64,000 bases of DNA, taken from positions 2,571 through 66,570 of the forward strand of contig JASEIC010000001.1 in assembly GCA_030017555.1 (NCBI GenBank), written 5' to 3'. A program made the position numbers and the translations under genes. The notes under the pieces are model-generated. The model was not told the origin of the DNA. It saw nothing but the letters and a program-made list of their open reading frames with translations, and searched no databases. Positions 36,015-64,000 of the stretch are shown piece by piece. How positions within the stretch are numbered: position 1 is the stretch's first letter; every line of letters begins with the position of its first letter. This DNA is from Patescibacteria group bacterium (lineage in GTDB: Bacteria; Patescibacteriota; Minisyncoccia; UBA6257; GWB1-50-10).

Positions 36015-37238
36015 ATGCATTTATTGTTCCAAAATTTAAAAAAATACATTGATCCTATAATTTTGATATCCTGTTTTTCTAACTTAGGAATCATTTTAAT
36101 AACCTTCAATATCATAACAAATACCGCTGAACATTTTTCTTACTTGGCTGAAAGTTTTATAAGTGGCGTTACTTATTTTCTTAAAATGCCGGCAATGAGC
36201 TGGGGTGATACAACGCTTTTCAATAATCACTATTATTGGCCTCTTGGTCCTTTTCCGGCCGTACTTCTCATTCCATTCGTATGGATATTTAAACAATTCA
36301 ACGTATTTTTCCACCAAGGTTATCTTCAATTGCCAATAGTAATAGGAATAGGATATCTTTTTTTTGCTGTTGCCAAACGATTAAAAATAAATAACCGCGA
36401 TTCGCTCTACGCAACTCTCGCATTCATTTCATCATCCTTCTTTATGTTGGCTATTCAGCCTTCCGGTTGGATATTTTCTCAAATAATAGTTATTTTCTTT
36501 ATATTTCTTGCCCTTCTTGAATATTTAACCCGCAAACGGTATCTAATTATCGGATTTTTAATGGGGTGTGTACTTGCCACTCGAATTACTGCCGGACTTG
36601 GCATTTTATTTTTTGTGCTTGATATTATATTTTCTCAAGAATCAAAAAAAATAAAATATCAAAATCTCATAAATCTTGCTGCACCGTTTATGATTATAAT
36701 TATATTACTTGGTTTTTATAATTACCTAAGATTCGAAAATTTTTTAGATTCCGGATATAAACATCAAATCCTTACAAATCCCGCTCTTATAAAAGCGCGG
36801 GATTACGGACTTTTTAGCATTCATCACCTTGCTTCAAATCTTTATTATTTTCTTTTAGCCGGCCCGATTCCGGTCTTTAAAGACAGCATTTCCCGCGTCC
36901 TTGCTTTTCCGTTTATAAAACCCGATCCATGGGGCATGAGTATATTTATAACATCACCATATCTACTTTATATGTTCTGCTTAAAATACAAAGACGGGCT
37001 TTCTAAAATTATTTTAATTACTGCCACGATTATTGCTTTACCAATATTTCTTTATTATGGCATCGGTTGGATACAATTTGGTTACCGTTACGCATTTGAT
37101 TTTTTGCCGTTTATATTTCTTCTCTTTATAAAAAATTACAATGATCGTTACCATAATTTCTCAAAACTTTTAAAAATTATCATAGTTTTCTCGCTCTTCT
37201 TCAACCTGTTTTTAATATTTACGGGCTTCTTAAAATAA
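36015..37238 (+). CDS. Polytopic membrane protein, possible GT-C glycosyltransferase (hypothetical)
   Basis: 407 aa with ~10 TM segments, in an operon with glycosyltransferases. Confidence 0.4.
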   Translation: MHLLFQNLKKYIDPIILISCFSNLGIILITFNIITNTAEHFSYLAESFISGVTYFLKMPAMSWGDTTLFNNHYYWPLGPFPAVLLIPFVWIFKQFNVFFHQGYLQLPIVIGIGYLFFAVAKRLKINNRDSLYATLAFISSSFFMLAIQPSGWIFSQIIVIFFIFLALLEYLTRKRYLIIGFLMGCVLATRITAGLGILFFVLDIIFSQESKKIKYQNLINLAAPFMIIIILLGFYNYLRFENFLDSGYKHQILTNPALIKARDYGLFSIHHLASNLYYFLLAGPIPVFKDSISRVLAFPFIKPDPWGMSIFITSPYLLYMFCLKYKDGLSKIILITATIIALPIFLYYGIGWIQFGYRYAFDFLPFIFLLFIKNYNDRYHNFSKLLKIIIVFSLFFNLFLIFTGFLK

Positions 37239-43130: not shown

Positions 43131-44015
43131 TTATTTTCTTCTTCGGCCATGGAAAGCTTCGTGAACTTCGCGAAGTTCTTTATTGGTAATGTGCGTGTAA
43201 ATCTGAGTCGTTGAGATGTTGGCGTGCCCCAGAAGCTCCTGGACCGAGCGCAAATCCGCGCCGTTTATCAAAAGATCGGTCGCAAAACAATGTCTTAAGA
43301 GATGCGGATGAACTTTTTTAGAAATCCCGGCCTCACGAGACCTTAAATCAACTAATCGCTCAACTGCTCGAGGCGTAATTCGTCCAATAACTTCGTTGCT
43401 CTTTGTTAAACTCACAAAAAGAGCTTCTTCAATATCAGTTCGTTTATTTAAATATTTTTTAATGGTTTGTTTTGCCATATCAGCCAGAAAAACAACACGC
43501 AATTTATCGCCTTTGCCGCGGATAGATATTTCACCACGCTCCAAATCAATATTGCGATTTAACTTGCAAAGTTCAGATAACCGAAGACCCGTAGAAAACA
43601 GGATTTCTAAAATCGCGCGATCCCTCAAGCTCCGAAGATCGTTGCCGCCTGAAGCATTAAGCAAGCGTTCTAATTCTTTATAATCCAAAATTTCGATATC
43701 GCGACGCGAAACTTTTGGCAATTCAATTGTTTCGGGAGATAAAACTTCTATACCGCGTTTAATTAAATATTTTAAAAAATTTCTGATGGCAATGACATAA
43801 TAGCTTTGGGTTATTTTTTTCAGTTCTTGCCTTGAAAGGGAAACGCGAAAACTTCTTATCACTTCGGGCGTAATATCTTTTACTTTTTTAATGTTTGTTC
43901 CTTTTACGAATGCATTTAAATAACGCTCATAATTTTCCCGGGTTTTCAAAGACCGGTTTTTTTCAACTTCCAAATAATCCAGGTAGTCTTTTAAATAATT
44001 TTCTATTTCACTCAT
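43131..44015 (-). CDS. Tyrosine recombinase, XerC/XerD-like
   Basis: Catalytic R...HxxR...Y tetrad (LRDRAILEILFSTGLRLSEL; HLLRHCFATDLL; GHANISTTQIYTH). 294 aa. Confidence 0.8.
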   Translation of the reverse strand: MSEIENYLKDYLDYLEVEKNRSLKTRENYERYLNAFVKGTNIKKVKDITPEVIRSFRVSLSRQELKKITQSYYVIAIRNFLKYLIKRGIEVLSPETIELPKVSRRDIEILDYKELERLLNASGGNDLRSLRDRAILEILFSTGLRLSELCKLNRNIDLERGEISIRGKGDKLRVVFLADMAKQTIKKYLNKRTDIEEALFVSLTKSNEVIGRITPRAVERLVDLRSREAGISKKVHPHLLRHCFATDLLINGADLRSVQELLGHANISTTQIYTHITNKELREVHEAFHGRRRK

Positions 44016-47386: not shown

Positions 47387-48523
47387 ATGCCACAAGATCC
47401 TTTTTCTCAATCAAAATGGTCCGACCAAAATCAATCGTTAGGAACAGGCGAAGGCGAATCGCCTCTTATGACTCCGGGAACGCCTTCTCCTAAAATTGAT
47501 GTTCGGACTATGGCTTCGGACATAAAATCAACGCAAGAATCTGGCGGCGGCACACCTCATCCTTACACGCCGCCACCACCACCTGTTAAAACCGAGAATA
47601 TTAACGCCGAATCATCAAATTTAAGAATTGAACAAAAACCAGCAGATAAAAAACCCAATGATTCTATTTTTAGACCGCCCGAAGCACCGGTAACGCCCGC
47701 GCCAACAATAATTTCAAAAACATTTCCCGGCGGACAATTAAAATCAAAGAAAAAAACATTGCTTTGGATTATTATTGCGGTTGTTGTTATCGGTCTTGTT
47801 ACTCTTGGCTATTTTGTTTTGTATCCTGTTTTATATCCAATGTTCTTTCCAAAAAGCCCGATTGTGGTTGAAAATTCGATTCCGACACCAATAATACCTG
47901 CGCCAACACCAGAGCCAGAGCCTGCGCCAATTCCCATAGAAATACAACCAATTCCCGAACCGCTAATCACTCACACTTCTTTATTTAAAGAAACGGCTGA
48001 TCTTACAACTGAAATTTCTCTGCCTAGTCTTTCGCTTCAAGATTTGAAAGCTTCAATAGAATTTGCCACGGCTGACGTTCCAATACTAAAAGAAATCGTA
48101 CTAAAAGACAGTAATAATAACTTAGTTAACGCTGAAAAAATAATGGGGCTTTTTGATTCATCTACGTTTTCAAGCCCTGCCATGCAAAACTTCGATCAAG
48201 ATCCAACCATATTTTCTTATACAAACAATCAAGGAACATGGTTAGGCATTGTTTTAAAACTAAGCTCTAGCGCATCAATCAACGCGGTGAAAACAGATAT
48301 AAATAAAATAGAAACAAATAACAACGCAACCAATTTCTTCTTAACAGACCCGGGAAAATCATCAACCTGGAAAGACGGCAAGGTTAATAATTATCAAGCT
48401 CGTTATATTGGATTTTTAAAAACGGGAGCCGCTCTAAGCTACGCCTGGGTCAATGATCAGTTCCTCCTTATAAGCACAAATTATGCAGGAGCCCAAGAAG
48501 CTACAAAACTTTTAGGTTTTTAA
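47387..48523 (+). CDS. Pro-rich bitopic membrane protein (hypothetical)
   Basis: Cytoplasmic Pro/Thr-rich N-terminus, TM LLWIIIAVVVIGLVTLGYFVLYPVLYPMFF, and an extracytoplasmic domain. Confidence 0.45.
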   Translation: MPQDPFSQSKWSDQNQSLGTGEGESPLMTPGTPSPKIDVRTMASDIKSTQESGGGTPHPYTPPPPPVKTENINAESSNLRIEQKPADKKPNDSIFRPPEAPVTPAPTIISKTFPGGQLKSKKKTLLWIIIAVVVIGLVTLGYFVLYPVLYPMFFPKSPIVVENSIPTPIIPAPTPEPEPAPIPIEIQPIPEPLITHTSLFKETADLTTEISLPSLSLQDLKASIEFATADVPILKEIVLKDSNNNLVNAEKIMGLFDSSTFSSPAMQNFDQDPTIFSYTNNQGTWLGIVLKLSSSASINAVKTDINKIETNNNATNFFLTDPGKSSTWKDGKVNNYQARYIGFLKTGAALSYAWVNDQFLLISTNYAGAQEATKLLGF

Positions 48524-51256: not shown

Positions 51257-52330
51257 TTATTTCAAAGCAAATGGGTTTTTCGCGCCATAAACTTCAAAAT
51301 GAAGATGACAACCAGTTGGCCCGTGAGTGTTGCCGGTATTGCCAATAAGACCTACTTCTTCCCCTTGCGAAACATAATCACCAATCCTCACTGTTACTTT
51401 TCCTAAATGGGCATAACGAGATTTTGTGCCATTTGGATGCTCAATAAAAACAAACAAACCATACCCGTTATTCCATCCGCTTAAACCGTCCCCCAAAGAT
51501 TCGTCCGGCACCACAAGTCCTTCAGCCGCGGCATATACTGGCGCACCGCAACGATTAGCAATATCAACGGCATTAATCTCGTGAAGCACGCCCCAATTCC
51601 AACCTTGAACCGGTAAAACAAAATAGCTCTTTAAATCCGGCAACCTACTACCCAGACGATTTAAAGAACTAATCCGCTTTATATTTTTAACATAAGGAAG
51701 AACAACCAAACTGCCCGGTTCGTTAAAAAGTTTTTGATAATCGGCATTATATTGCTTGATTAAACCTTGATTAACCTCGTATCGACTAGCTACGGCTTCA
51801 AGAGAATCTCCTTCTTTTACCTCATAAAGCGCTCCGGAAACCGGCAAAATTACAAGCTCTTGCCCCGATCGAATACTTGACCCAAGACCGCCGTTGGCTT
51901 CCCGGAGAGTTTCAAGCGATATGCCAAATTGAGCCGCAATATTGGACAAATTGTCGCCGACACGAACACTGTAACGTTTAAGACCTCCTCTTACTTCCAC
52001 AATATTTGTGAGCGAATTAGAAACCCCCATAACCGTACCGCTATCTAACGCCGGTATTTGTCCTTTTCCTCGTTGAAATTCCCCGGTTATCCCGCTTGTT
52101 GTGACAAACGCGGCTTCTTTTTCTAAATTAACTACCGGACCGCCAATATTTAAATTTTCAAAATTTTCGCGCAATAAATTACGGTTATAAAAATCATTAA
52201 CGCTACCCGAAATCGCAATCAAAAAAACAATAAAAACAAGCGACCAGAAATTGGCCGATTGAAATATACGCTTTAAAAAAGCCTGAATTAAAGCTATCAT
52301 TCTCTTATAAACTTGATTATAGCATAACAA
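51257..52330 (-). CDS. M23-family peptidase with two LysM domains (peptidoglycan hydrolase)
   Basis: LysM repeats (VRVGDNLSNIAAQFGISLETLREAN; VKEGDSLEAVASRYEVNQGLIKQYN) and the M23 motif GCHLHFEV. Confidence 0.8.
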   Translation of the reverse strand: MLCYNQVYKRMIALIQAFLKRIFQSANFWSLVFIVFLIAISGSVNDFYNRNLLRENFENLNIGGPVVNLEKEAAFVTTSGITGEFQRGKGQIPALDSGTVMGVSNSLTNIVEVRGGLKRYSVRVGDNLSNIAAQFGISLETLREANGGLGSSIRSGQELVILPVSGALYEVKEGDSLEAVASRYEVNQGLIKQYNADYQKLFNEPGSLVVLPYVKNIKRISSLNRLGSRLPDLKSYFVLPVQGWNWGVLHEINAVDIANRCGAPVYAAAEGLVVPDESLGDGLSGWNNGYGLFVFIEHPNGTKSRYAHLGKVTVRIGDYVSQGEEVGLIGNTGNTHGPTGCHLHFEVYGAKNPFALK

Positions 52331-52357: not shown

Positions 52358-53188
52358 ATGCGACAAAAATTCGGACAGCATTTTCTTAAAAATAAAATCC
52401 AATTAAAAAAAATCGCGGATGCGCTCGAGTTAAAAGAAAATGATGCGATTATTGAAATTGGTTCGGGCCACGGAGAATTGACCTTTGAAATTATCAGTAC
52501 ATTCAAATCTTTGAACATTAATAATTTTAAAATTTTTGCGATTGAAAAAGATCCGCTTTTGGCAAAAAGATTGAGAAAAAAGATTTTGAATTTAAAGTTC
52601 ACGAACGCGATTGAAATTATAGAGGGCGACGCATTTAAAAAAATTCCTATTATTCTTGAATCCAGAATTCCACTTCATGAAAACTATAAACTTGTCGGCA
52701 ATATTCCATATTATATTACCGGTTTTTTATTCAGGTTTTTGGGCGAATTGGAACCCAAACCAAATATTATTGTTTTTACCGTCCAAAAAGAAGTGGCGGA
52801 AAGGATTGCCGCTAAACCGCCGAAAATGAACATTTTATCAGCCAGTATTTGCTATTGGAGCTTACCCAAAATCATAGATTTCATACCAAAAAAAGCTTTT
52901 TTACCAATCCCAAAAGTTGATTCAGCGATTATTAAACTGGACTGCATAAAAAATAACGCTTCTTTTTTGCGAGAAAAAGAAAATTACTATAGATTCATCA
53001 AACTCTTGTTCAAGCAACCTCGTAAAACTATTTTAAATAACGTTTTAGGAAAAAATAGAAATCTTTCGTTAATCCAAAAAGAACAAATTATAAAAAAAAT
53101 AGACAGCATCAGCATTAATCCGTTAGCCAGACCGCATAATTTGAGTATAGAAAATATTAAAAATCTAAGTCAAATATTGTATAATTAA
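52358..53188 (+). CDS. rsmA: 16S rRNA (adenine1518/1519-N6)-dimethyltransferase RsmA/KsgA
   Basis: MRQKFGQHFL...IEIGSGHGELT...NIPYYIT. Confidence 0.85.
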   Translation: MRQKFGQHFLKNKIQLKKIADALELKENDAIIEIGSGHGELTFEIISTFKSLNINNFKIFAIEKDPLLAKRLRKKILNLKFTNAIEIIEGDAFKKIPIILESRIPLHENYKLVGNIPYYITGFLFRFLGELEPKPNIIVFTVQKEVAERIAAKPPKMNILSASICYWSLPKIIDFIPKKAFLPIPKVDSAIIKLDCIKNNASFLREKENYYRFIKLLFKQPRKTILNNVLGKNRNLSLIQKEQIIKKIDSISINPLARPHNLSIENIKNLSQILYN

Positions 53189-53192
53189 TGTA

Positions 53193-53630
53193 ATGAAAAT
53201 GAAACGGAAAAAAATAATTATTTTCTCGTTTATTCTAATATCGGTTATTTTTCTTATTGCTTTGGCTGTTTTTGCAATCCCGGAACAAACAACCGCCCAG
53301 CTTTCTTCTCTTTTTATAAAACCTTTCGGCGGGAGAGTAACGATTACCAATATACCGCCTTTGATACAATGCGGGCTCAGTACAGAAGTTTTTTTAATAC
53401 TGCCAGCCGGTATTTCATCGGCCGGCCCTTTCGTTGCTTTGCCGTCAACTAAACGCTATGGCATTTGGAGCCAATTCTTCGGCGTTGCCCCTTTGCCGCC
53501 ACGCGCCATAAAAGGACTTTATACCCCTTTCGCAATCCCTTGCTTCACCAACACCGCTCCGCCAGCGCCAGCTCCGCCTCCATTTACAACAGCTTTTCCA
53601 ATTATTCTGTTTGGCACCTCGCTTTTCTGA
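53193..53630 (+). CDS. Small N-anchored Pro-rich protein (hypothetical)
   Basis: TM IIIFSFILISVIFLIALAVFA followed by a Pro-rich C-terminus. Confidence 0.4.
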   Translation: MKMKRKKIIIFSFILISVIFLIALAVFAIPEQTTAQLSSLFIKPFGGRVTITNIPPLIQCGLSTEVFLILPAGISSAGPFVALPSTKRYGIWSQFFGVAPLPPRAIKGLYTPFAIPCFTNTAPPAPAPPPFTTAFPIILFGTSLF

Positions 53631-53777
53631 AAAATGAATCCCTCACCCTCCAAAGATTGTTTAACATAAAAACAAAAAATATTCCTATGAATTACAAGCA
53701 ATTAAAAACAACAAGTTTCAAAACGCTTCTCTGGTCGCGAAGCGACTTTATCTTTGAAAGGTGAGGGATGAAATTTT
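53631..53777. mobile_element. Miniature inverted-repeat element (copy A, no ORF) of the tccctcaccc/gggtgaggga family. The right repeat provides the stop, SD and ATG of the downstream gene.
   Basis: Left aaaatgaatccctcaccctccaaagat (53631-53657) and right atctttgaaaggtgagggatgaaatttt (53750-53777) are imperfect inverted repeats around a 92-bp core with an internal gtcgcgaagcgac hairpin. Confidence 0.45.
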
Positions 53778-54577
53778 CACCAACTAAAAAATCAGCGGCT
53801 GTTATCATAATTATCACAAGCATATTTGCTTCGGTTTTTATTATTTTTTCATCGCAAACGCCTCAAGAAAAAGGTTTTTTAAAAATCTCGGCAAACTTAA
53901 ATGACGCGAATCCTTATTTAAATTTTAAAGCTCTTACAAATAACGGATTAACTGAAGCTGCAAAAAAAACCGAAAATAAAGTTTTGACTGATAATTTAAC
54001 CGATCAGCTCATCAACAATTACGGCTATGAAATTCTAAAGCGGAATCCCAGTGGCCCCTTAAACCGGGGTGGCGGACAAAGTCTGACTATGCCTTCTCAA
54101 AATCTTCTTCAAAAATTGCTGGAGGACAAATTAACGCAAAATCTCAAAATAGATTTTTATGAAATCAAAGACTTAAAAATTGGCAACGACAATTCTCTTA
54201 AAGCTGTCCGCGCTTATCTTGAAGTTTTAAACAGCGTCAATAAAAAAAATCTTTTGGTCATAAAAAAATCTCCTTTTGCGATGTTTAATGATTTTTTCCG
54301 CAAAAAAAATCCGGATCAGCTTTATCAGTATCTCGGTTTTTTATCTAGTTATACAACCGACCTTTTGAAAATTTCAGTGCCGTCTTCTTGGCAGGCATTT
54401 CATTTGGAATTATTAAACTTAGAGCAGAAAAAAATTACTATTTATCAAACCCTTGTTAATGCGGAACAAGATCCAGTCAAAGCCCTGATTGCCGCCCAAG
54501 AAATAGAAAAAATTGACCAAGAAGAACTCGATTTAGCCACGGTTTTACAAGAAAAATTAAAGGACTTAAATATTTAA
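53768..54577 (+). CDS. N-anchored membrane protein, possible VirB8/TcpC-like T4SS component (hypothetical)
   Basis: Single N-terminal TM plus a ~240-aa extracytoplasmic domain. First gene of the T4SS-like cluster. The ATG sits inside the repeat. Confidence 0.35.
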   Translation: MKFSPTKKSAAVIIIITSIFASVFIIFSSQTPQEKGFLKISANLNDANPYLNFKALTNNGLTEAAKKTENKVLTDNLTDQLINNYGYEILKRNPSGPLNRGGGQSLTMPSQNLLQKLLEDKLTQNLKIDFYEIKDLKIGNDNSLKAVRAYLEVLNSVNKKNLLVIKKSPFAMFNDFFRKKNPDQLYQYLGFLSSYTTDLLKISVPSSWQAFHLELLNLEQKKITIYQTLVNAEQDPVKALIAAQEIEKIDQEELDLATVLQEKLKDLNI

Positions 54578-54580
54578 TTT

Positions 54581-56374
54581 ATGCTAAAAACGCAAAAAAT
54601 AATTACTATTTTCCTTGTTATTTCAGTTATAACCGCCGGCTTTTTCTTTCCTTTTCAAATAAAAGAGGCTAAAGCGGACATTGCCGGTGATTTTACGAAA
54701 CATTGTGTTGGCGACTTACTTTTTGATATAGGGTTGGAGTTAGGTCTTGGTAATGTCATTACTAAAATTGAAGAATTTCTTTCGCCAGGATCAGTGCCTT
54801 CAAGTGATGCAAATACTAAAGCGGAGCTAAGAAGATTTGAGCTTAAAGAATGTTTTAGGCGCTTAAAAGATCTGGCAATTGTTGCGGCCCACAATTATTT
54901 GAAAAAACGGCTTTTAGACCGGCTTGTTGACCAGACTGTTCAATGGATTCAAAACGGCGACGAACCAAGATTTGTCAGTGACTTTGACGAATTTCTTAAA
55001 GACGCGCACCAAGCGGCCGTTGGCGATACGCTTCGCGATATTGGTTTGGCAAAATTATGCGATGGGACTTTCGGAGCAAAATTAGAGCTTACTTTGGGAA
55101 AACGCGAACCGAGAAAGCTGACCCGAGACGTTACCTGCACATTAGATCAGGTTGTAGGCAATATTAATGCTTTTCGCAATGACTTTCAAAAAGGCGGCTG
55201 GCTTGGCATTCAAGAGGCCGCAAATCCAAGAAATAATATCTTTGGTTTAAAACTCATGGTTGTGGACAGAACAATCCGAGAAATTAGTATAAAACAAGAA
55301 ACAACTAAAGCTGAAGTCGCGGCAACCGGAATTAAGCCCCAAAAAAAATGTCTTGAATACACACTACTGGACAAAAAAACAGACGCTATTCTTAGACCAG
55401 GAGACTTTCATCCAATTGGCTCTGGCGGCTCTGATATGCTTGTGGGTCTAAATCCTACACCAGCTAATGCTGACGGCACGCCGCCAAGTCTATATGATGT
55501 AGCTATTAATTCCGGCCGCGCTTATTGGCGCTGTTCTAATGAACAAATAATAACTCCGGCTAACACCATAGCCGCAATAATAGCTAAAACCGGGGGCTTA
55601 GATTATGATTATATTTTAAACAGCGAAGATGTTTCTTCTTATTTTTCAGTTATATCTGACGCATTAATCAATCGGCTTACCACTGAAACCGGCAAGGGTT
55701 TGCGCGGTCTTTTTAAAGGCGGCGGCAGTCCTTCGCGAGGCGACGCAGGGTATCGCAACACTGATTATATAGACAGTAATACCGCTACTGCAATCCAAAA
55801 CTACGAAGGCACACTTACTGAAAATTATGAACTTAGCCCTGCCACAATAACCGCCAGTAAAGATGGTATGCTTGCCGCGATTGCTAAAGCCACTTCTTCT
55901 ATTGCAAATGCAGGAATAAATCTTAATACCGCAACACCAAAAAGATTAGAATTACTTCATTTGCTTTCTAACACGGCATTGAAGCCGGGTTGGGGCCTTA
56001 TTCAATGCATAAATCATATTGCAAATGTACACTCGCCCTTCACTTATGCAAGCGATCCGCCTATTGGACCAGACGTCCAAAGCACTTATGATTCTTACAA
56101 CACAGGCGGCGCTAACGCGCAAATTATTACGTCTTTAACAAATCAAATCGCGCCGCTTAATACTTCGGCAAACACCTTAAAAACCCAGGTAACAAACGCG
56201 GTTACTTCAGCAGATATTACGGCTTTAATACCTAAAGTAAATTCGCTTCTTACTGACGCTAAAAGTCTTGAAACAAATTCTCAATCAATCTTAAACGGGT
56301 TAGTAGAATTAGTAGCAACCGCCACAAATCAACGTCGGGACTGCAATGATTTTGATAGCGAATTTGATTCATAA
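54581..56374 (+). CDS. Secreted 597-aa protein (hypothetical; possible T4SS surface/adhesin component)
   Basis: Signal peptide MLKTQKIITIFLVISVITAGFFFPFQIKEAKA. No catalytic motifs recognised. Confidence 0.45.
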   Translation: MLKTQKIITIFLVISVITAGFFFPFQIKEAKADIAGDFTKHCVGDLLFDIGLELGLGNVITKIEEFLSPGSVPSSDANTKAELRRFELKECFRRLKDLAIVAAHNYLKKRLLDRLVDQTVQWIQNGDEPRFVSDFDEFLKDAHQAAVGDTLRDIGLAKLCDGTFGAKLELTLGKREPRKLTRDVTCTLDQVVGNINAFRNDFQKGGWLGIQEAANPRNNIFGLKLMVVDRTIREISIKQETTKAEVAATGIKPQKKCLEYTLLDKKTDAILRPGDFHPIGSGGSDMLVGLNPTPANADGTPPSLYDVAINSGRAYWRCSNEQIITPANTIAAIIAKTGGLDYDYILNSEDVSSYFSVISDALINRLTTETGKGLRGLFKGGGSPSRGDAGYRNTDYIDSNTATAIQNYEGTLTENYELSPATITASKDGMLAAIAKATSSIANAGINLNTATPKRLELLHLLSNTALKPGWGLIQCINHIANVHSPFTYASDPPIGPDVQSTYDSYNTGGANAQIITSLTNQIAPLNTSANTLKTQVTNAVTSADITALIPKVNSLLTDAKSLETNSQSILNGLVELVATATNQRRDCNDFDSEFDS

Positions 56375-56380
56375 AATTCT

Positions 56381-58801
56381 ATGCGGAAACATTTAAAGAA
56401 AATCGCGTTAATATCAATCCCGATAATCATCTTAATTTCTCTTGTGCCAATACTGGCTCATAGTCAGGGCTTTTGGGAAGTTTTAAATCCAATTAACTGG
56501 ATTAAGTGGGCAATAATGGCTGTTCTTTACCTTATTTCTTATATCGGCACATTATTTTTCAGTTTGGCGGGTTATTTGGTCGGTTTCTTTTTAAAATTCA
56601 ATTATGGAATTTTAAATTCAAATAATTTAATTGACCGCGGCTGGGCAATCACAAGAGATATTGCCAATCTCGGTTTTGTTCTGGTAATCGTGATTATTGC
56701 CCTCGCTACCATCTTACGATTTCAAGAATACGGCTACAAAAAACTCTTGCCGAAACTTATCGCGGCGGCAATTCTTGTAAATTTCAGCCTGGCCATTGCC
56801 GGCGTTTTTATTGATTTTTCCCATGTTTTAACCAAACAATTTTTCAGCGCGGTTGAAAGCCCGGGCACTGATATAGTCCAAGTGCTCTCCGGCGCCTTTG
56901 AGCCGCAAAAATTTTATACCGAACCTCTTGACCCGGCTCCAATTGACCCTGAAGAAGAAGCCGGCGGCTTTGAAGGATTTACGGTTTCCGTGCTCCTTGA
57001 TATTTCAAAACTTTTATTTACGGCAATTTTTATTTTTGCCGCGGCATTTGTTCTGTTTGCTTTTGCTTTTATGCTTCTTCTCCGATATATTTATTTATCG
57101 CTTCTTTTGGTTATCGCGCCTATTGCCTGGCTTTTTTGGGTTTTTCCGGCTTTGTCGGGCCAATTTAAAAAATGGTGGAGTAAATTCCTGGAATGGGTAT
57201 TTTTCGCGCCCGTTGTCGCTTTTTTCTTTTATTTAACGCTCACTTCCATAAAAAGCTTGAATCAAAACGCTCTTTTGCCGGACGGCACGTTCTTTAAAGG
57301 CACTCTTTCTGATTTAATGGCTCAAGGCGCGAAAATGGTTTTGCTCATCGGCCTTCTTTTTGGCGGCTTAATTATTGCCCAACAAATGGGTATTACCGGC
57401 GCGGCCGGCGCCATGAAAATGGCAAACACGGTCGGCAACAAAACCAAAAAATGGGCCGGAGAGAAAATGAAAGCTGGCGGTATTGCGGCTGGCAGACGAG
57501 CTCTTACGACCGGCGCTGGCAAAGATTTGGAAGGCAAATCCGCGCTTGAAAGAGCTGGAGAAGGAGTTGGCGGCAAGCTGGCGGAGTGGGGTTCCACAAA
57601 ATGGGGCAGGCGCTTTGGCATTGGAGTCTTAAGTAAACCATTCACCGGTATTGCCGGCGCGTCAGCTCAAGCTAAAGAAAAATTAAAAGCTGAAACCGAA
57701 GCCAGAGCAAAAAAGAGAATGCCGGAATCTTCGGAACTTGCTTTAGCGCGAATGCGTCTAGAATTAAGCAAACCTGAAGCGCTTGCTGATTCAGCATCAA
57801 CTGTCGCTAGTTTTACAAAAATCGCTCAAGATAAAAAAATGTGGGGTAGCCTAACCCCGCAAGAACAAGAAAAAATGCGGGATCGCGCTATTTCCGCCGG
57901 CCGGAAAACTAATTCTCTAGATAAGGTCATAGATGCCGACAAAGCATTGCTGGATCGACCGGAAATATTACCCGACGAAAAATTACTCAAGGCTTCTCTT
58001 GACGCGCAAAAATCTCCGGACTTTGAAAATCTGCCGGATGACATAAAACAAGCTATTTATGAAGGAATAGCGAGAACAGTTTTAAAACTGCCGGATAATC
58101 TAACGGATATCGCGCCTAATATTATAAAACTGCTTGAAAATAAAGACGCCCGCGAAATCATAAGACAACGCGGCTTAGAAGACGCGCTTTACAGCAAAAT
58201 AGAAGCTTCCAATGCTACCGGAGCCGTTAATAGAAACTTGCGTATTCAAGCTGCCGCGCTAGATCCTAGCAGGTTTTTTGAAAGTCTAGGTTTTGATGCG
58301 CCAAGCATATCAAATGACGAAAAAGATGAATCAATGAAAGAAATTCTTTCCAGAGTAAAAGATCCGGCAAATCTGATAATAAATGATCTAAGCGCTCTTT
58401 CCCAAAATCAGCGCGCTATTCAAACACGCCTTGTTCAAAATTTGAGCTTTAATCTGCACAGTAAAATTGGCAGTGAAGGTTCGCCAGAACTTAAAACCAA
58501 CACTATTCACACTCTTGCAAGAGGCATTGATCAACTTACTGGCACAAATACTTTTGCTGATCTTAAAAAGTTCTCTGGTGATATTAAGGAATTTGAAGAG
58601 CAATACGAAGCCTTAAGACGAGAGAAGGGCGCAAACGATAGCTCTACTCTGGCTAAAGCTGCTCAATTCAACCAAGCCAAAACCGATCTAAAAACAGCAG
58701 AAACAAATCTTAAAAACATCTCCAAAGACGCTCATCAACTTTGGCAAGTTTATCAAAAAGATCTTAAAGACACCAATTATCAAGACGCAACTTGGCCTTA
58801 A
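56381..58801 (+). CDS. VirB6/TrbL-like polytopic membrane protein with a long C-terminal hydrophilic domain (TcpH/PrgH-type)
   Basis: ~8 N-terminal TM helices over ~330 aa, then a ~470-aa charged domain. The architecture matches Gram-positive VirB6 homologues. Confidence 0.5.
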   Translation: MRKHLKKIALISIPIIILISLVPILAHSQGFWEVLNPINWIKWAIMAVLYLISYIGTLFFSLAGYLVGFFLKFNYGILNSNNLIDRGWAITRDIANLGFVLVIVIIALATILRFQEYGYKKLLPKLIAAAILVNFSLAIAGVFIDFSHVLTKQFFSAVESPGTDIVQVLSGAFEPQKFYTEPLDPAPIDPEEEAGGFEGFTVSVLLDISKLLFTAIFIFAAAFVLFAFAFMLLLRYIYLSLLLVIAPIAWLFWVFPALSGQFKKWWSKFLEWVFFAPVVAFFFYLTLTSIKSLNQNALLPDGTFFKGTLSDLMAQGAKMVLLIGLLFGGLIIAQQMGITGAAGAMKMANTVGNKTKKWAGEKMKAGGIAAGRRALTTGAGKDLEGKSALERAGEGVGGKLAEWGSTKWGRRFGIGVLSKPFTGIAGASAQAKEKLKAETEARAKKRMPESSELALARMRLELSKPEALADSASTVASFTKIAQDKKMWGSLTPQEQEKMRDRAISAGRKTNSLDKVIDADKALLDRPEILPDEKLLKASLDAQKSPDFENLPDDIKQAIYEGIARTVLKLPDNLTDIAPNIIKLLENKDAREIIRQRGLEDALYSKIEASNATGAVNRNLRIQAAALDPSRFFESLGFDAPSISNDEKDESMKEILSRVKDPANLIINDLSALSQNQRAIQTRLVQNLSFNLHSKIGSEGSPELKTNTIHTLARGIDQLTGTNTFADLKKFSGDIKEFEEQYEALRREKGANDSSTLAKAAQFNQAKTDLKTAETNLKNISKDAHQLWQVYQKDLKDTNYQDATWP

Positions 58802-58817
58802 TTTAATTATTTAAAAT

Positions 58818-59738
58818 ATGCCAACAACACTAAAAGAGGTTCCAATAAAAATTAAAACTCATCTTGGTTCAGATGAAATTATTGGCGTTATTGACCGGTT
58901 AAACAATAATGCTCGGATTTTTGAACCGCGAACCATACCACTCATTCTTTTTAAACTTATTACCAAAATACTTGCTCCAGAAAAAATTTATGAACAAATT
59001 TTAAAAGATTTAAATTTTTCTGAAGAAAAAACAAAAGCAATTACAAGAGAGATAAAAGAAAAAATTTTAGAACCGATCAAAGACGATTTAAAAAAACGGG
59101 GAATTGATATTGATGTAATTGACACAAAAAACTCTTTACTATTTCATGATTTTCTTAAAAAAGAAAAAGAGGAACTCCAAAAATTCGGCATTTCTTTTGA
59201 AATCATTGAAGAGCCCGAACCAATAAAAAGAATTTCGCTTGATAAAATAGGCGAGGCGCCGATGGCTAAAAAAATCCCGATTGAACAAACTGAAAACTTT
59301 TTTTCAAACAAACAAGATGGTTCGCCGCTCATTATTCATCAGGTAAAACCCTTAACCGAAACAAAACCAAAAACATCAACCCCGCTTTTTTCTCTTCCTT
59401 TTAAATTTCTAAAATCAAAATTGTCTCAAAGAAACCTGGAAAAACCGGTAATGGCTCGAATTGAAACGCCTGAAAAAACCATGCCCGAACCAGAAGAAAA
59501 TCAAGCATCAAAAAGAGTTGTTCATTACAGCGGCAATCGTACCCCTTTTTCTCCCGCTGAAACACCTGATTTTATTAATTTGGAAAAATTATCGCCGGAT
59601 ATTCCCGCGCCCCCTTCTCCGCCAACGCCGAAAAAAGAAAACGCGGAGCCAAAAACTCCTCCGCCAACGCCAAAAACAACAGAAATTGACGATAAAAACA
59701 AACCCAAACTAGACGGCAACATCGTTGATTTGAGCTAA
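58818..59738 (+). CDS. Hypothetical protein with a Pro-rich C-terminus
   Basis: 306 aa. C-terminal PAPPSPPTPKKENAEPKTPPPTPK. Confidence 0.4.
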   Translation: MPTTLKEVPIKIKTHLGSDEIIGVIDRLNNNARIFEPRTIPLILFKLITKILAPEKIYEQILKDLNFSEEKTKAITREIKEKILEPIKDDLKKRGIDIDVIDTKNSLLFHDFLKKEKEELQKFGISFEIIEEPEPIKRISLDKIGEAPMAKKIPIEQTENFFSNKQDGSPLIIHQVKPLTETKPKTSTPLFSLPFKFLKSKLSQRNLEKPVMARIETPEKTMPEPEENQASKRVVHYSGNRTPFSPAETPDFINLEKLSPDIPAPPSPPTPKKENAEPKTPPPTPKTTEIDDKNKPKLDGNIVDLS

Positions 59739-59823
59739 AACACGCCCATGAATCCCGTTAGAAGCAACTAAATCATGAAACCTATAAATACTAAGCATTT
59801 ATCTGAATCAATAAAAGGGATGA

Positions 59824-60121
59824 ATCCCTCACCCTTGAAAAACTAACTGATTATGTTTTACATTTATCTACTAAAATCAAGGCTTAATAATGGTTTTTGT
59901 GTTGGGTTTACGCCTGACTTGAAATCCAGACTGCTAAAACATAATCGGGGAGATGTTTTATCAACAAAACGTTATCTGCCTCGGGAATTAATGTACTATG
60001 AAGCGTATAAATCTAAAAAAGACGCTGTCTTGCGAGAAAAACAGCTTAAACGATTCGCCAAAAGCTTTTCGATGTTAAAACGTCGACTTAAATATTCCTT
60101 GGTTTTTCAAGGGTGAGGGAT
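59824..60121. mobile_element. Inverted-repeat-bounded GIY-YIG cassette (copy B of the tccctcaccc repeat family)
   Basis: 20-bp perfect inverted repeats atccctcacccttgaaaaac (59824-59843) and gtttttcaagggtgagggat (60102-60121) bracket ORF 59853..60116. Confidence 0.5.
59853..60116 (+). CDS. GIY-YIG nuclease-domain protein (YhbQ/UPF0213-like, 87 aa)
   Basis: FYIYLLKS...GFCVGFTPDLKSRLLKHNRG...STKRYLPRELMYYEAY...REKQLK matches GIY-YIG motifs. Its stop TGA lies inside the right repeat. Confidence 0.7.
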   Translation: MFYIYLLKSRLNNGFCVGFTPDLKSRLLKHNRGDVLSTKRYLPRELMYYEAYKSKKDAVLREKQLKRFAKSFSMLKRRLKYSLVFQG

Positions 60122-60617
60122 GAACTTCCAAGTACCGCAATTTATAGACGAACAAGCCAAAATTATCGGCTTTCTTACCTTAAAACAATTTGGTTTTATT
60201 GCCGTCGCCTTCATCACGGCGCTTATTTCTTTTCATTACTTTACTTTTTCTCTTGCTCTTATTATTACCGTAATTGTTGGCGCCTTAGCCATTGCTTTGG
60301 CATTTGGCAAAGTAAACAGCCAACCGTTGCCAAAAGTGATTTTAGCTGGTTTGGGATATTTGTGGAGTCCCAGAACTTATACATGGCAGCGCGCAATGAA
60401 AGAAACCGATCTTGATATTTCCGCTTTAGAAAAATTGGAGACGACAAGAAGAAATATGAGCATTCAAGAAAAAATAAAATCCATCGCCTTATCAATTACC
60501 ACCAGTAAATTCTTGTCGCCAAAACAAATGCGAGAAAATAATGAAAAGAAAAAATACCAAGTGGTTAGTTTTTCAACTGGAGAACGCAAATTTGCCAAAC
60601 GGGTTGACTATAAATAA
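60120..60617 (+). CDS. VirB3/PrgI-like two-TM protein (putative)
   Basis: Two adjacent TM helices (FGFIAVAFITALISFHYFTFSLALIITVIVGALAIALAF), placed upstream of the VirB4-like ATPase. ATG at 60120 lies inside the repeat. Confidence 0.4.
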   Translation: MNFQVPQFIDEQAKIIGFLTLKQFGFIAVAFITALISFHYFTFSLALIITVIVGALAIALAFGKVNSQPLPKVILAGLGYLWSPRTYTWQRAMKETDLDISALEKLETTRRNMSIQEKIKSIALSITTSKFLSPKQMRENNEKKKYQVVSFSTGERKFAKRVDYK

Positions 60618-60666
60618 TAACACAAAAAATATTTAGTTCGACTATAATAAATTTAATCACACTTTC

Positions 60667-61314
60667 ATGGAACCGGCATTGCCAACTCAAAAATTCGTTG
60701 ATATAAAAAACGTCAAAGACGGCGCGGTTTATCTCAAAAATAACGGCTTACGAAAAATACTGATTGTGAGCGGCGTAAATTTTGATTTAAAATCCGAAGC
60801 CGAACAATCTTTAATCTTAAATACCTTTCAAAACATGTTAAACTCTCTGGACTTTTCAATTCAATTCTTTGTTCATTCCCGCAAAATCAACGTCGACGAA
60901 TACCTCGCAAATATGAGCACGAAAAAAGAAAAAGAACCGAACGAACTTCTCAAAATTCAAATCGAGGAATATGTCGAATTTATTCGTTCGTTTGTTCAAG
61001 AAAATTCTATTATTTCTAAAGCTTTTTTTGCTATCGTTCCTTATGACCCCCAACCGATTACTTCTCAAACACGAGGTTTTTTGAACACTTTTAAAACACT
61101 TGTTAAAAAACCAAGCACAAATAAAGTAGAAGAAGAAAATACTCAAAAAAATCTGGAACAGCTTGACCACCGAGTAAATCAAGTTATTGACGGCTTAGAA
61201 CAAATTGGACTCCGGGCAGTTCCTCTTGAAGATGATGAAATTACCGAACTTTTCTATAATCTTTATAATCCTCAACTTGTTGAAAAAAAAGGTTTAAATA
61301 TCGCAGAAAAATGA
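60667..61314 (+). CDS. Hypothetical protein; possibly the detached N-terminal domain of VirB4
   Basis: 215 aa. 4-nt ATGA overlap with the downstream 585-aa VirB4-like ORF. The combined length of ~800 aa equals a canonical VirB4. Confidence 0.35.
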   Translation: MEPALPTQKFVDIKNVKDGAVYLKNNGLRKILIVSGVNFDLKSEAEQSLILNTFQNMLNSLDFSIQFFVHSRKINVDEYLANMSTKKEKEPNELLKIQIEEYVEFIRSFVQENSIISKAFFAIVPYDPQPITSQTRGFLNTFKTLVKKPSTNKVEEENTQKNLEQLDHRVNQVIDGLEQIGLRAVPLEDDEITELFYNLYNPQLVEKKGLNIAEK

Positions 61315-63068
61315 CAAAAATTAAAATTCCACAACCTTATAAACCGAGCTCTGAAGACGTAGCAAATATTATTGCTCCGGCCGGTCTTGAAGCAAGTCCA
61401 AATTACATGAAATTGGGGGACTATTTTGTTAAAACTCTTTTTATTTTCACTTACCCGAGATATATTTCAAGCGGTTGGTTTTCTCCAATAATTAATCTCG
61501 CGGAAATGATGGATATTTCTATTTTTGTCCACCCAATGGATACGGCTTTAGCGCTTAGAAATTTAAGGAAAAAAGTCGCTCAAATTCAAGCTGAAGCAAG
61601 CGAAAGAGAAGAAAAGGGCCTTGTCCGCGATCCGATTTTAGAAACCGCTCACCAAGACATTGAAAATCTCCGCGACGCTCTCCAGCAAGCCCGGGAAAAA
61701 CTTTATAGGATCGGGGTTTACATAACAATTTACGGCAAAGGCTTGGAAGAATTAAATAAATTGGAAAATAAAATAGAAAACATGCTTGAAGCGAAACTTG
61801 TTTATATAAAACCCGCGCTCTTCCGACAACTTGAAGGTTTTGCCTCAACCCTGCCTCTTTGCCAAGATAAATTATTGATTCATACGGCTTTAAATTCCGG
61901 CCCTTCTTCTTCGCTTTTTCCTTTTGTTTCACCGGACTTAACCTCGGATAAAGGCATCCTTTACGGCGTTAATATGCACAATGCCAGTCTTATAATTTTT
62001 GACCGATTTTCTCTTGAAAACGCCAACACTGTTGTCTTTGCTAAATCCGGCGCGGGCAAATCTTATGCCACTAAACTTCAAATCCTTCGTTCTCTTATGA
62101 TCGGGACAAACGTCATTGTTATTGATCCGGAAAATGAATATCAAAACTTAGCTAACGCGATTGGCGGCAGTTATTTTAAAATTTCTCTAACCTCGCCAAA
62201 CCATGTTAATCCTTTCGACATTCCAATCAGTCCGGAGGGCGAGAAACCGGCTGATGTTTTTAAATCTCATGTTTTGAACTTAACCGGACTAGTAAAATTA
62301 ATGCTCGGCTCTATTACGCCCGAAGAAGACAGCCTTTTAGATCGGGCTATTACTGAAACTTATGCTTCTCGCGATATTACCGCTGAAACATTCGGCGCCA
62401 TAAAAGAATTAAATCCGCCCCTCTTAGAAGATCTGCAGGTTGTTCTTAAAAACACTGAAGGCGGCGCTGGCATTGCTCAACGGCTTGAGAAATTCACTCG
62501 CGGTTCTTACGCTGGTTTTACAAACGCGCCCACCAACGTTGATATAAAAAACCGGTTCATTGTTTTTTCAATAAGAGATTTGGAAGAAGAATTAAGACCC
62601 GTGGCAATGTACATAGTCTTAAATTTTGTCTGGAACTTGGTTCGGTCAGAATTAAAACAACGGCTTATGATTATTGATGAAGCTTGGTGGATGATGAAAT
62701 ACAAAGATTCGGCGGCTTTTCTTTTTGGCCTCGTGAAACGCGCCCGCAAATACTATTTGGGCATTACCACCATCACTCAAGACGTTGAAGATTTCTTGAA
62801 ATCCGATTATGGCCGGCCGATTGTCACTAATTCCTCAATCCAATTTTTGATGAAACAATCAACAACCTCCATTGGTTCGGTTGCTCAAGCTTTTGATCTT
62901 ACCGAGAGCGAAAAAACTTTTTTAGTCGAAGCCGGCGTCGGCGAAGGATTATTTTTTGCCGGCTTAAAACACGTCGCCATAAAAATTATCGCCTCCTTTA
63001 CCGAAGATCAAATTATTACCACCAATCCCGAACAAATGATTGAACTTAAAGGGCTAACTAAAAAATAA
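61311..63068 (+). CDS. VirB4/TrbE/CagE-family type IV secretion ATPase (C-terminal ATPase part)
   Basis: Walker A VVFAKSGAGKSYATKL. NPFD motif. Walker B LMIIDEAWW. RKYYLGITTITQ conserved C-terminal block. Confidence 0.7.
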   Translation: MTKIKIPQPYKPSSEDVANIIAPAGLEASPNYMKLGDYFVKTLFIFTYPRYISSGWFSPIINLAEMMDISIFVHPMDTALALRNLRKKVAQIQAEASEREEKGLVRDPILETAHQDIENLRDALQQAREKLYRIGVYITIYGKGLEELNKLENKIENMLEAKLVYIKPALFRQLEGFASTLPLCQDKLLIHTALNSGPSSSLFPFVSPDLTSDKGILYGVNMHNASLIIFDRFSLENANTVVFAKSGAGKSYATKLQILRSLMIGTNVIVIDPENEYQNLANAIGGSYFKISLTSPNHVNPFDIPISPEGEKPADVFKSHVLNLTGLVKLMLGSITPEEDSLLDRAITETYASRDITAETFGAIKELNPPLLEDLQVVLKNTEGGAGIAQRLEKFTRGSYAGFTNAPTNVDIKNRFIVFSIRDLEEELRPVAMYIVLNFVWNLVRSELKQRLMIIDEAWWMMKYKDSAAFLFGLVKRARKYYLGITTITQDVEDFLKSDYGRPIVTNSSIQFLMKQSTTSIGSVAQAFDLTESEKTFLVEAGVGEGLFFAGLKHVAIKIIASFTEDQIITTNPEQMIELKGLTKK

Positions 63069-63434
63069 ATGGATCAAGAACACAATAAATACAAAGAAGT
63101 AGAATTAATCCTTGGCAGTATGGTAACAATTAGCATTGATGGTGTTTGTTTTATTCTTGATTTTACTGGAATCGGCGACATTATCACTCCTTTCATACAA
63201 AGCGCCGGTACGGCGTGCCTTTCTTTGTGGGCCTGGCGAAAAGGCGACAAAGCCTCGCTTAAACTCGGAAGGCAAGCAACAAAATACGCTTCAAACGCAC
63301 TACCATGGCTCCCCACGCTCACGGCCATGTTCTTAATAGAAGCTTATATGCATAATCATCCGGAAAAATTCGCTTTAGCCCAAAAAGCCATGAGCGCCGG
63401 TTCGGGCAAACCCGCTGTTACTGCAGTCAAATAA
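63069..63434 (+). CDS. Small hydrophobic protein (hypothetical T4SS accessory)
   Basis: 121 aa, immediately after the VirB4-like gene. Confidence 0.35.
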   Translation: MDQEHNKYKEVELILGSMVTISIDGVCFILDFTGIGDIITPFIQSAGTACLSLWAWRKGDKASLKLGRQATKYASNALPWLPTLTAMFLIEAYMHNHPEKFALAQKAMSAGSGKPAVTAVK

Positions 63435-63464
63435 CAAATTTCGCGCTATAATTAAATAATAACA

Positions 63465-64000
63465 ATGAAATTTCTGTCTATAATTACAATACTTGTTTTA
63501 GCTGGATTTTTTGGATTATCTAGCTCTGTTTCTTCTCAAACCGAATCTCAAGGAGAAATAATTTTCACCTGGCAAACCAAGAATTTTTACCCGGCTGATT
63601 TCAAAGGCAAATCTCTTCCGGTTCAAAATTCATTTGTTGATATTTCTTTGGAGCTTTTAAAAAACAGCAAACTTCAAGATTTATCTCTAGCCGATATTAC
63701 CTGGTTTTTAGATGAAAAAGTGATAAATCGCGGAACGGGAAATAACGAAACTTCTTTTATCGTAAAAAAGGCTGATAGCGATTCTCATTTTATCCGGGTT
63801 GCCGTAAAGCTGGGCAATGACCTGCACGAAAGTTCAATGCGTCTTTATGTGTCAAAACCGAAAATCGCCATAACCACAAATCCTTTTCCAAACTCCTTTG
63901 TCCCGCCGGGCGCGGAACTGACTCTTCAAGCCATTCCTTATTTTTTTAATATAAACAACATTCAAGACCTTTTGTTTTTTTGGCAAATAAACAGCGAAAA
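63465..64000 (+). CDS. Secreted protein, 5' part only (continues past the window end)
   Basis: ATG at 63465. Signal peptide MKFLSIITILVLAGFFGLSSSVSSQ. Open to the window edge. Confidence 0.45.
   Translation, partial: MKFLSIITILVLAGFFGLSSSVSSQTESQGEIIFTWQTKNFYPADFKGKSLPVQNSFVDISLELLKNSKLQDLSLADITWFLDEKVINRGTGNNETSFIVKKADSDSHFIRVAVKLGNDLHESSMRLYVSKPKIAITTNPFPNSFVPPGAELTLQAIPYFFNINNIQDLLFFWQINSE

Follow-up and report, generated by a model that had tools for sequence, protein, structure and literature searches.

A chromosomal type IV secretion locus in a Patescibacteria genome, with a VirB4 ATPase split between two genes and a set of lineage-specific accessory proteins

We examined 64,000 nt of the Patescibacteria group bacterium assembly GCA_030017555.1 (contig JASEIC010000001.1, positions 2,571-66,570 of the forward strand; this whole stretch is called the window below), and describe a chromosomal type IV secretion system (T4SS) locus of the Patescibacteria, or candidate phyla radiation (CPR), which occupies 53768-64000 with its genes co-oriented on the + strand. 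The Patescibacteria, to which a large part of bacterial diversity belongs, are host-dependent, and a chromosomal T4SS is among the few candidate machines for that dependence. This kind of system has already been published (Wang 2023, PMC10633639; Quinonero-Coronel 2025, PMC12102498), and the copy in the window is an ordinary member. Our analysis adds the fission and fusion of TrsD and VirB4, a conservation of VirB4 that exceeds that of DnaA, a catalogue of orphan accessory proteins (six syntenic families without a family assignment, going beyond PMC12102498), a negative test for VirB8 and a set of GIY-YIG insertions. A preliminary description, made from the sequence alone, had proposed a contiguous and co-oriented run of genes here. 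All of its open reading frames (ORFs) exist on the + strand with the coordinates below and the co-orientation holds, but the run is interrupted by an 87-aa GIY-YIG gene (59853-60116) that had been overlooked. The genes of the locus and its upstream border, with transmembrane abbreviated as TM, are as follows.

51257..52330, - strand: LysM and M23 peptidoglycan endopeptidase, 357 aa (PF01551, E=5e-24; two LysM domains)
52358..53188, + strand: KsgA/RsmA 16S rRNA dimethylase (PF00398, E=8e-40), the upstream border marker
53193..53630, + strand: 145-aa protein, possibly an accessory, with a TM segment near its N-terminus and a tail rich in Pro
53768..54577, + strand: 269-aa N-anchored protein, a lineage-specific accessory
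54581..56374, + strand: 597-aa secreted protein with a signal-peptide-like N-terminus and 8 Cys
56381..58801, + strand: 806-aa extended VirB6-like polytopic membrane protein, so named from its predicted fold and its orthologues
58818..59738, + strand: 306-aa accessory protein with a Pro-rich C-terminus
59853..60116, + strand: 87-aa free-standing GIY-YIG nuclease gene (PF01541, E=1e-11)
60120..60617, + strand: 165-aa PrgI/VirB3-like protein with two TM segments (PF12666)
60667..61314, + strand: 215-aa TrsD-like protein, matching the VirB4 N-terminal domain in VirB4 models; no TM segment predicted
61311..63068, + strand: 585-aa VirB4 ATPase, C-terminal two-thirds (NF045971, PF19044)
63069..63434, + strand: 121-aa hydrophobic accessory protein
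63465..64000, + strand: secreted-protein gene, 5' part (178 codons from the ATG at 63465), cut by the window end

The ATPase gene provides the clearest identification. Its product scores 361.4 bits against the NCBIfam model NF045971 (“VirB4-like, CD1110 family”; cut-off 325), aligning to positions 183-733 of 752, and also matches PF19044 (E=2e-28), with the Walker A (GAGKS) and Walker B (LMIIDE) motifs both intact. By its best curated model, the 585-aa protein is thus a VirB4 ATPase of the monoderm type (MPF_FATA/CD1110), and the earlier proposal of a VirB4-like ATPase with Walker motifs now has a curated threshold behind it. Relatives were collected by scanning one genome per species for VirB4. 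This returned 134 relatives, and all comparisons below use the best 80 loci (L001-L080); the scan relied on DNA patterns back-translated from the window VirB4 and reached close relatives only. The 80 loci come from Patescibacteria/CPR or unclassified metagenome-assembled genomes, with labels including Jorgensen-, Brenner-, Wolfe- and Harrison-bacteria and Paceibacterota. The window VirB4 is 65-93% identical to theirs, and 30-35% (at most ~35%) identical to plasmid VirB4s of Bacillota and Actinomycetota; among the 5000 best plasmid VirB4 matches, 3759 are conjugative. Judged from these identity levels and from the taxa of the matches, the protein probably belongs with the Patescibacteria clade.

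The 215-aa protein encoded immediately before the ATPase, which the preliminary description had listed without an identity, aligns with N-terminal stretches of VirB4 models (NF045975, E=2.6e-10; TIGR00929, positions 18-178) as well as with the TrsD model NF041427 (E=2e-6). Its gene overlaps that of VirB4 by the bases ATGA, and the identical 4-base overlap recurs in 10 related loci. The N-terminal matches taken together with this overlap indicate that VirB4 has been split into two genes, and the full VirB4 architecture, an N-terminal domain and a C-terminal ATPase domain, is present as two polypeptides. Four relatives at a greater distance encode both parts in a single ORF of 716-795 aa (L067, 9551-11701; L071, 9305-11692; L073, 9314-11686; L074, 2860-5241), and the fused L071 protein aligns to positions 4-724 of the 792 of TIGR00929. 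These fused orthologues therefore identify the TrsD-like proteins, including the 215-aa protein, as detached VirB4 N-domains.

Two genes upstream of the ATPase gene lies the 165-aa protein, with TM segments at residues 18-36 and 45-63. It scores 28.5 bits against Pfam PrgI (PF12666; gathering score 27, E=2e-6) and weakly matches TraL (TIGR02762), so that the proposal of a VirB3/PrgI-like protein with two TM segments holds at the Pfam threshold. The 806-aa protein is harder to place. It consists of a conserved TM domain (residues 1-~350, with ~7 hydrophobic segments within residues 1-340) and a variable hydrophilic domain (~400-806). Searched directly, neither the whole protein nor the TM domain alone matches a VirB6 hidden Markov model (HMM) at E<=1, an outcome that the preliminary description had itself named as counting against its VirB6/TcpH-like label. 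In a search of the Protein Data Bank (PDB), the full-length family profile met nothing but coiled coils and low-complexity noise, which came from its variable C-terminal half, and an hhalign comparison of the VirB6-like profile with PrgH of pCF10 was weak (E=0.085). On the other side, 4 of 55 orthologues match Pfam TrbL/VirB6 (PF04610), and the orthologue P0013, 48% identical to the 806-aa protein, reaches 29 bits where the gathering score is 25.9. An AlphaFold2 (AF2) model of residues 1-400 reached a predicted local distance difference test score (pLDDT) of 86 and a predicted template modelling score (pTM) of 0.78, and shows a polytopic helical fold like that of solved VirB6 structures. With this model as the Foldseek query, the top seven hits are TrwI/VirB6 of plasmid R388, and among natural structures TrwI/VirB6 and DotA come closest, with E-values of only 1e-3 to 5e-2 and TM-scores of 0.3-0.55. 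The label thus failed in direct HMM search and survived through the fold and the 48%-identical orthologue, and we accept the protein, on its predicted fold and its TrbL-passing orthologues, as a probable extended VirB6 whose C-terminal half is hydrophilic and variable. A precomputed PF19590 label carried by many of the VirB6-like homologues could not be reproduced in a fresh scan of P0001, and was not used as evidence.

Comparison of the 80 loci reveals a conserved gene order, M23(-)-ksgA-269-597-VirB6-306-PrgI-TrsD-VirB4-121-secreted, with individual genes found in 36-74 of the 80 and the cluster overall syntenic in ~50-70; many loci lie on truncated contigs, and the following per-gene counts are therefore lower bounds.

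269-aa protein: 43 of 80 loci
597-aa protein: 59
VirB6-like protein: 63
306-aa protein: 36
PrgI: 71
TrsD-like protein: 74
121-aa protein: 45
secreted ~224-aa protein: 72
ksgA (upstream of the cluster): 50

The preliminary description had proposed HMM searches and comparative genomics as checks; VirB4 and PrgI pass their thresholds, and the synteny is conserved among the 80 relatives. The closest relative, L001, whose VirB4 is 93% identical to that of the window, also gives a view past the window end. After VirB4 it encodes a 121-aa protein, a 224-aa secreted protein, a 506-aa pilin-domain protein and a 384-aa N-anchored protein, followed by jag, yidC and rnpA (on the other strand), and then dnaA, dnaN and a penicillin-binding protein. 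This downstream order is found in ~50 loci, with rnpA, dnaA and dnaN 4-7 kb downstream of VirB4, so that the operon stops where the region of the replication origin begins. The N-terminus of the 506-aa protein (L001:4190-5710) matches Pfam T4SS_pilin (PF18895, E=2e-7), and the protein has a weak match (E=7e-4) to the pilin-like family of Mbov_0395 from a Mycoplasma integrative and conjugative element (ICE). Homologues of the pilin-domain protein were found by tblastn in 65 loci. In this family the VirB2-type pilin domain forms the N-terminus of proteins of 177-594 aa with variable C-terminal extensions, and is not a stand-alone pilin of ~100 aa. Scans for promoters and terminators gave counts at chance level, from which operon boundaries could not be called.

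The locus is embedded in the chromosome and appears to be inherited with it. Within the same genomes, mean identity to L001 is 77% for VirB4, 69% for DnaA, 55% for YidC and 50% for DnaN, and the divergence of VirB4 correlates with that of DnaA, DnaN and YidC (Spearman 0.62-0.70). This conservation and co-divergence argue for vertical inheritance under strong constraint, and not for a mobile or decaying element. The GC content of the locus (0.35-0.43) is similar to that of the remaining window, with no compositional island seen, and megablast against plasmid and phage collections found no DNA like the locus. Outside the T4SS cluster the window carries ordinary chromosomal genes, among them those for leucyl-tRNA synthetase, NusA, FtsK, serine hydroxymethyltransferase, FtsH, GyrA, polynucleotide phosphorylase, ComM, the M23/LysM peptidase and KsgA. 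Among the 20 ORFs scanned there (19 of the 21 largest plus a XerC/D-type gene), no phage, relaxase or VirD4 gene was found. Searches by tblastn and phmmer with the type IV coupling protein (T4CP) PcfC and the relaxase PcfG of pCF10 found nothing in the window or within +/-10 kb of the 80 loci, while PrgJ, the VirB4 of pCF10, finds VirB4 in all 81 (the window plus the 80 loci). The reported absence of VirD4 and relaxase from the window is therefore borne out by both the ORF scans and these searches, and where the preliminary description suggested looking for them just downstream, ~50 syntenic relatives run into rnpA-dnaA-dnaN instead. It had also reported no integrase or phage genes; no phage gene appeared in the scanned ORFs, but a XerC/D-type recombinase is encoded at 43131-44015.

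For the remaining proteins, Pfam scans of the orthologue sets of the 121-, 224-, 145-, 269-, 306- and 597-aa proteins found no recurring family in any. The 269-aa protein has a single TM segment (residues 9-27), and 43 loci encode an orthologue in the same place, with identities of 22-36%. Neither Pfam nor NCBIfam gives a match, and a family profile of 44 sequences found nothing in the PDB. Its AF2 model, which rests on 8 sequences (word-index searches gave 3 homologues with the single sequence and 9 with a profile), is of low confidence (pLDDT 57), with residues 1-124 unstructured and 130-269 forming a helical bundle. Foldseek with this model gave a best E-value of 0.46 and no NTF2/VirB8 match, and hhalign of the family profile with PrgL and PrgD of pCF10 gave a probability below 1%. 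The tentative VirB8/TcpC-like label given earlier thus finds no support from HMM, PDB profile, Foldseek or hhalign searches. As a candidate VirB8/TcpC/PrgL the protein was rejected: the anchor is present, but the C-terminal domain as modelled (at that same pLDDT of 57) is all-helical and not of the alpha+beta NTF2-like kind.

The 597-aa protein is a member of a very large family that lacks annotation: of the 1.84 billion representatives searched, 1873 clusters match it at E<=1e-3, and 812 of them still do so at E<=1e-10. A conserved Cys-containing core (~residues 90-400), with near-invariant Cys, Trp and Gly positions, precedes a coiled-coil-like C-terminal part, and orthologues are present in 59 loci. 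The core has no Pfam domain and a family profile found only coiled coils in the PDB; a few members carry extra fn3 or PKD domains, which suggests an extracellular or surface location. The 306-aa protein lacks a TM segment and has 23% Pro in its final 70 residues. In 36 loci an orthologue (24-37% identity) occupies the place between the VirB6 and PrgI genes, and neither the protein nor any of its orthologues matches a known family. Orthologues of the 121-aa protein stand immediately 3' of VirB4 in 45 loci, and the 31 members scanned matched neither a pilin nor any other recurring family. The secreted-protein gene cut off by the window end is 64% identical to a complete 224-aa ORF (L001:3407-4081). 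Its product is predicted to be ~224-235 aa at full length and has orthologues in 72 loci; two members of the family weakly match the immunoglobulin-like (Ig-like) BiPBP_C family. Further upstream, the 145-aa protein (TM at residues 8-26; Pro content of 20% over the final 70 residues) has relatives by tblastn (30-39% identity) in 8 loci only, mostly with ksgA on one side and the remaining cluster on the other, and no family match was found for it.

The M23/LysM peptidase on the other strand has its best NCBIfam matches among DipM/MepM-type models, all far under their cut-offs, and was found by tblastn in 33 related loci, mostly on the opposite strand just upstream of ksgA. VirB1-like matches with M23/LysM domains have been reported near virB4 in Paceibacteria (PMC12102498). 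From this remark and the synteny, the peptidase may be a wall-opening enzyme of the T4SS, in the role of VirB1, or alternatively an ordinary cell-division hydrolase.

The GIY-YIG gene that lies between the 306-aa and PrgI genes of the window genome is absent from 77 of the 80 related loci, and its relatives in the other three are 39-43% identical (L018, 2157-2351; L043, 2363-2614; L046, 9741-9998). Counting the window genome, 4 of the 81 genomes under comparison carry such a gene, which sits in three distinct intergenic gaps of this one T4SS operon. The gene is a sporadic insertion outside the set of T4SS components, and the three intergenic sites suggest a mobile, homing-type gene that has landed repeatedly in the operon.

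The published system most similar to this locus is the Paceibacteria arrangement described from 3,035 Patescibacteria genomes by Quinonero-Coronel (2025; PMC12102498), who found a monophyletic VirB4 clade nested in MPF_FATA. In that study TrsD is the commonest companion of VirB4, PrgI/VirB3, VirB6 and VirB2-like pilins are encoded near virB4, homologues of VirB8 and VirB1 are rare, relaxases are almost absent, and the neighbourhood of virB4 comprises dnaA, dnaN, rnpA, rpmH and ksgA. The window locus shares the VirB4 of MPF_FATA ancestry with an adjacent TrsD-like gene, the PrgI/VirB3 and VirB6 genes beside virB4, a VirB2-like pilin domain nearby (in its relatives), the missing relaxase and a place on the chromosome close to ksgA, rnpA, dnaA and dnaN. 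There is no difference in kind, and the window adds details only. A second comparison is with Southlakia epibionticum, in which T4SS genes are essential for epibiotic growth and include pilins, with no recognized relaxase or coupling proteins (Wang 2023; PMC10633639). The cluster of strain ML1 (SEML1_0006-0019), which to judge from its low locus-tag numbers probably lies close to the beginning of the genome record, is likewise a monoderm-type T4SS with pilin genes and without a recognizable relaxase or coupling protein. It differs in belonging to the Saccharimonadia, in its array of six short VirB2-like pilins and in the peptidase and lysozyme genes directly downstream of virB4, whereas in the relatives of the window a single pilin-domain protein carries a long variable extension, and the M23 peptidase is encoded upstream on the other strand. 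A recent review regards the Patescibacteria system as a new type of T4SS (PMC12857230).

Among the conjugation systems of Bacillota, the order VirB6-VirB3-VirB4 is that of prgH-prgI-prgJ in pCF10 Prg/Pcf, to which the match of VirB4 to the CD1110-family model adds a further likeness, and the separate TrsD-like protein ahead of VirB4 is shared with the Trs systems of pGO1/pSK41, as in the pGO1 subclass. However, the T4CP, relaxase, PrgK-type hydrolase, PrgL/VirB8-like protein and LPXTG adhesin of the Bacillota MPF_FATA systems were undetected at the window locus. Those systems are carried on mobile elements whereas the window locus is chromosomal and origin-adjacent, and they are without a pilin-domain gene according to PMC12102498, whereas the relatives of the window have one. 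The Mycoplasma ICE offers another resemblance, as the Mbov_0397 VirB4 model is matched by the C-terminal part (E=9e-85) and by the TrsD-like part (2.6e-10), and the Mbov_0395 family weakly by the pilin-domain protein of L001 (see above), but all of these scores are under the curated cut-offs (285 vs 590; 19 vs 40), and Mycoplasma ICEs are mobile with DNA-processing genes of their own, of which none was found at the window locus. Helicobacter ComB and archaeal Ced share a VirB4-family ATPase without a relaxase, which is a functional analogy only, and the similarity of the window VirB4 to the Ced ATPases is weak and at the level of the P-loop.

Taken together, we consider it very probable that the locus is a vertically inherited, chromosomal Patescibacteria T4SS in a Paceibacteria/Parcubacteria-like arrangement, derived from monoderm MPF_FATA systems and without a DNA-processing module. 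Its membrane core consists of the split VirB4, the PrgI/VirB3-like protein and the extended VirB6-like protein, with the lineage proteins of 269, 597, 306, 121 and ~224 aa around it. Every testable feature of the published Patescibacteria T4SS was found, and the defining features of a conjugative element were not. The preliminary reading of a minimal, chromosomal T4SS of Gram-positive type with a non-conjugative or episymbiont role is thus supported by the HMM searches, by the relatives and by both published studies (PMC10633639; PMC12102498). In the mechanism that we propose from established T4SS biology, VirB4 would dock on VirB3 and VirB6 in the cytoplasmic membrane and supply the energy for building a pilin-based tube, or a pilus, across the wall, for which the secreted and anchored accessory proteins would supply wall-spanning and tip parts. 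The outcome would be a contact-dependent transfer of macromolecules between epibiont and host cell, and not conjugation. 

Several points weigh against this interpretation. The placement of VirB4 comes from identity levels and from the taxa of the matches, the 806-aa protein lacks a direct VirB6 match and its structural hits are modest, VirB8-like and VirB1-like components were not demonstrated at the locus, and the window ends before the pilin-domain gene, which the window genome probably has, judging from its relatives. Homologues of VirD4/T4CP occur in most Patescibacteria, mostly far from virB4 (PMC12102498), so a distant coupling protein is possible. Essentiality was shown in Saccharimonadia only, a different class (PMC10633639), and the function has been called “completely unknown” even in cultivated relatives (PMC11665869).

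The main alternatives concern what such a machine would carry, and in which direction. Ideas on function in recent reviews include both effector delivery and nucleic-acid import (PMC12857230; PMC11665869), and we give roughly equal weight to import and export. In the first case, the T4SS would work as a ComB- or Ced-like importer, taking up host DNA, RNA or other macromolecules and feeding a cell that is unable to make nucleotides. This bears on direction and substrate only, and not on the identity of the locus. Import is the favoured hypothesis of PMC12102498 and was raised in PMC11665869, and a 2026 preprint on a cultivated relative describes tubular structures at the host-parasite interface (possible T4SS pili) together with host RNA uptake. 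The lack of a relaxase or T4CP nearby points the same way, and the conservation of VirB4, on a par with that of core housekeeping genes, is consistent with feeding as an indispensable function. Matches of VirB4 to the archaeal DNA-import ATPases are recurrent but weak: the scores for CedB (E=6e-9, 35 bits) and CedD (20 bits) are far under the respective cut-offs of 700 and 600, and reflect the shared P-loop domain only. Moreover, the operon has no identified DNA-binding or nuclease component, the GIY-YIG gene being a sporadic insertion, and no experiment has linked a Patescibacteria T4SS to uptake. Import is thus a possibility that we hold only tentatively.

In the second case, the apparatus would serve as an attachment pilus, inject effectors into the host bacterium, or do both. 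A pilin-domain gene lies two genes past the window end in relatives, several accessory proteins are secreted or anchored, and the 597-aa family includes members with fn3 or PKD domains, as surface proteins typically have. For Southlakia, the export of proteins or else some alternative capacity was also suggested (PMC10633639). However, neither a candidate effector nor an effector-recruiting coupling protein is seen in the locus, and the length of the pilin-domain proteins (177-594 aa, against the canonical ~100 aa) makes their polymerization uncertain. We regard this reading, like import, as doubtful.

A more specific version of import would be a feeding organelle that runs in reverse, in which lineage-unique extracellular parts replace VirB8, VirB1 and adhesins and host nucleic acids or other macromolecules are brought in. 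Its parts would be the 269-aa anchor, the 597-aa Cys-rich and coiled-coil protein, the ~224-aa Ig-like protein, the pilin domain with its variable extensions and the 384-aa anchor. We think this unlikely, but if true, it would explain both the conservation of the ATPase beyond that of DnaA and the position of the operon beside the origin.

A conjugative plasmid or ICE, or the decaying remnant of one, with its relaxase and T4CP just outside the window, is very improbable, since, although the VirB4 family is otherwise found on conjugative elements and the window ends inside the locus, the fixed downstream genes lead into rnpA-dnaA-dnaN in ~50 relatives without a relaxase or T4CP, the upstream synteny with ksgA is conserved, a VirB4 more constrained than DnaA that co-diverges with housekeeping genes is the opposite of decay, there is neither a compositional island nor a plasmid or phage DNA match, and the only recombinase of the window is of the XerC/D type and 10 kb away. 

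The locus provides a clean Paceibacteria example, and its split VirB4 with fused counterparts, its orphan families, its lack of any detectable VirB8-like protein and its ATPase conserved at or above housekeeping level could guide structural or genetic work, as refinements of published findings.

Two further genes of the window were considered as parts of a conjugative apparatus and rejected. The recombinase at 43131-44015 (- strand) was tried as an ICE integrase, but has a XerC/D-type architecture and lies 10 kb off among housekeeping genes. The FtsK gene at 14613-16673 (+ strand) was tried as a TcpA-type coupling protein, but encodes a full FtsK with the 4TM, alpha, motor and gamma domains and, like the recombinase, has the look of a housekeeping gene.

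As for the replication origin, 28 of the 32 two-kb bins of the window have a negative + strand GC skew, and the cumulative skew falls steadily to -2.73, a weak hint of an origin close beyond the right end of the window. If the origin lies there, the T4SS operon is transcribed toward it, head-on to replication. At a 1.5-kb scale, the GC skew of L003 was too noisy for locating the origin. Elsewhere in the window, two ORFs have no Pfam match at E<=0.001 (36015-37238, + strand, 407 aa; 47387-48523, + strand, 378 aa), and Rfam identifies three tRNAs, all of which lie outside the locus.

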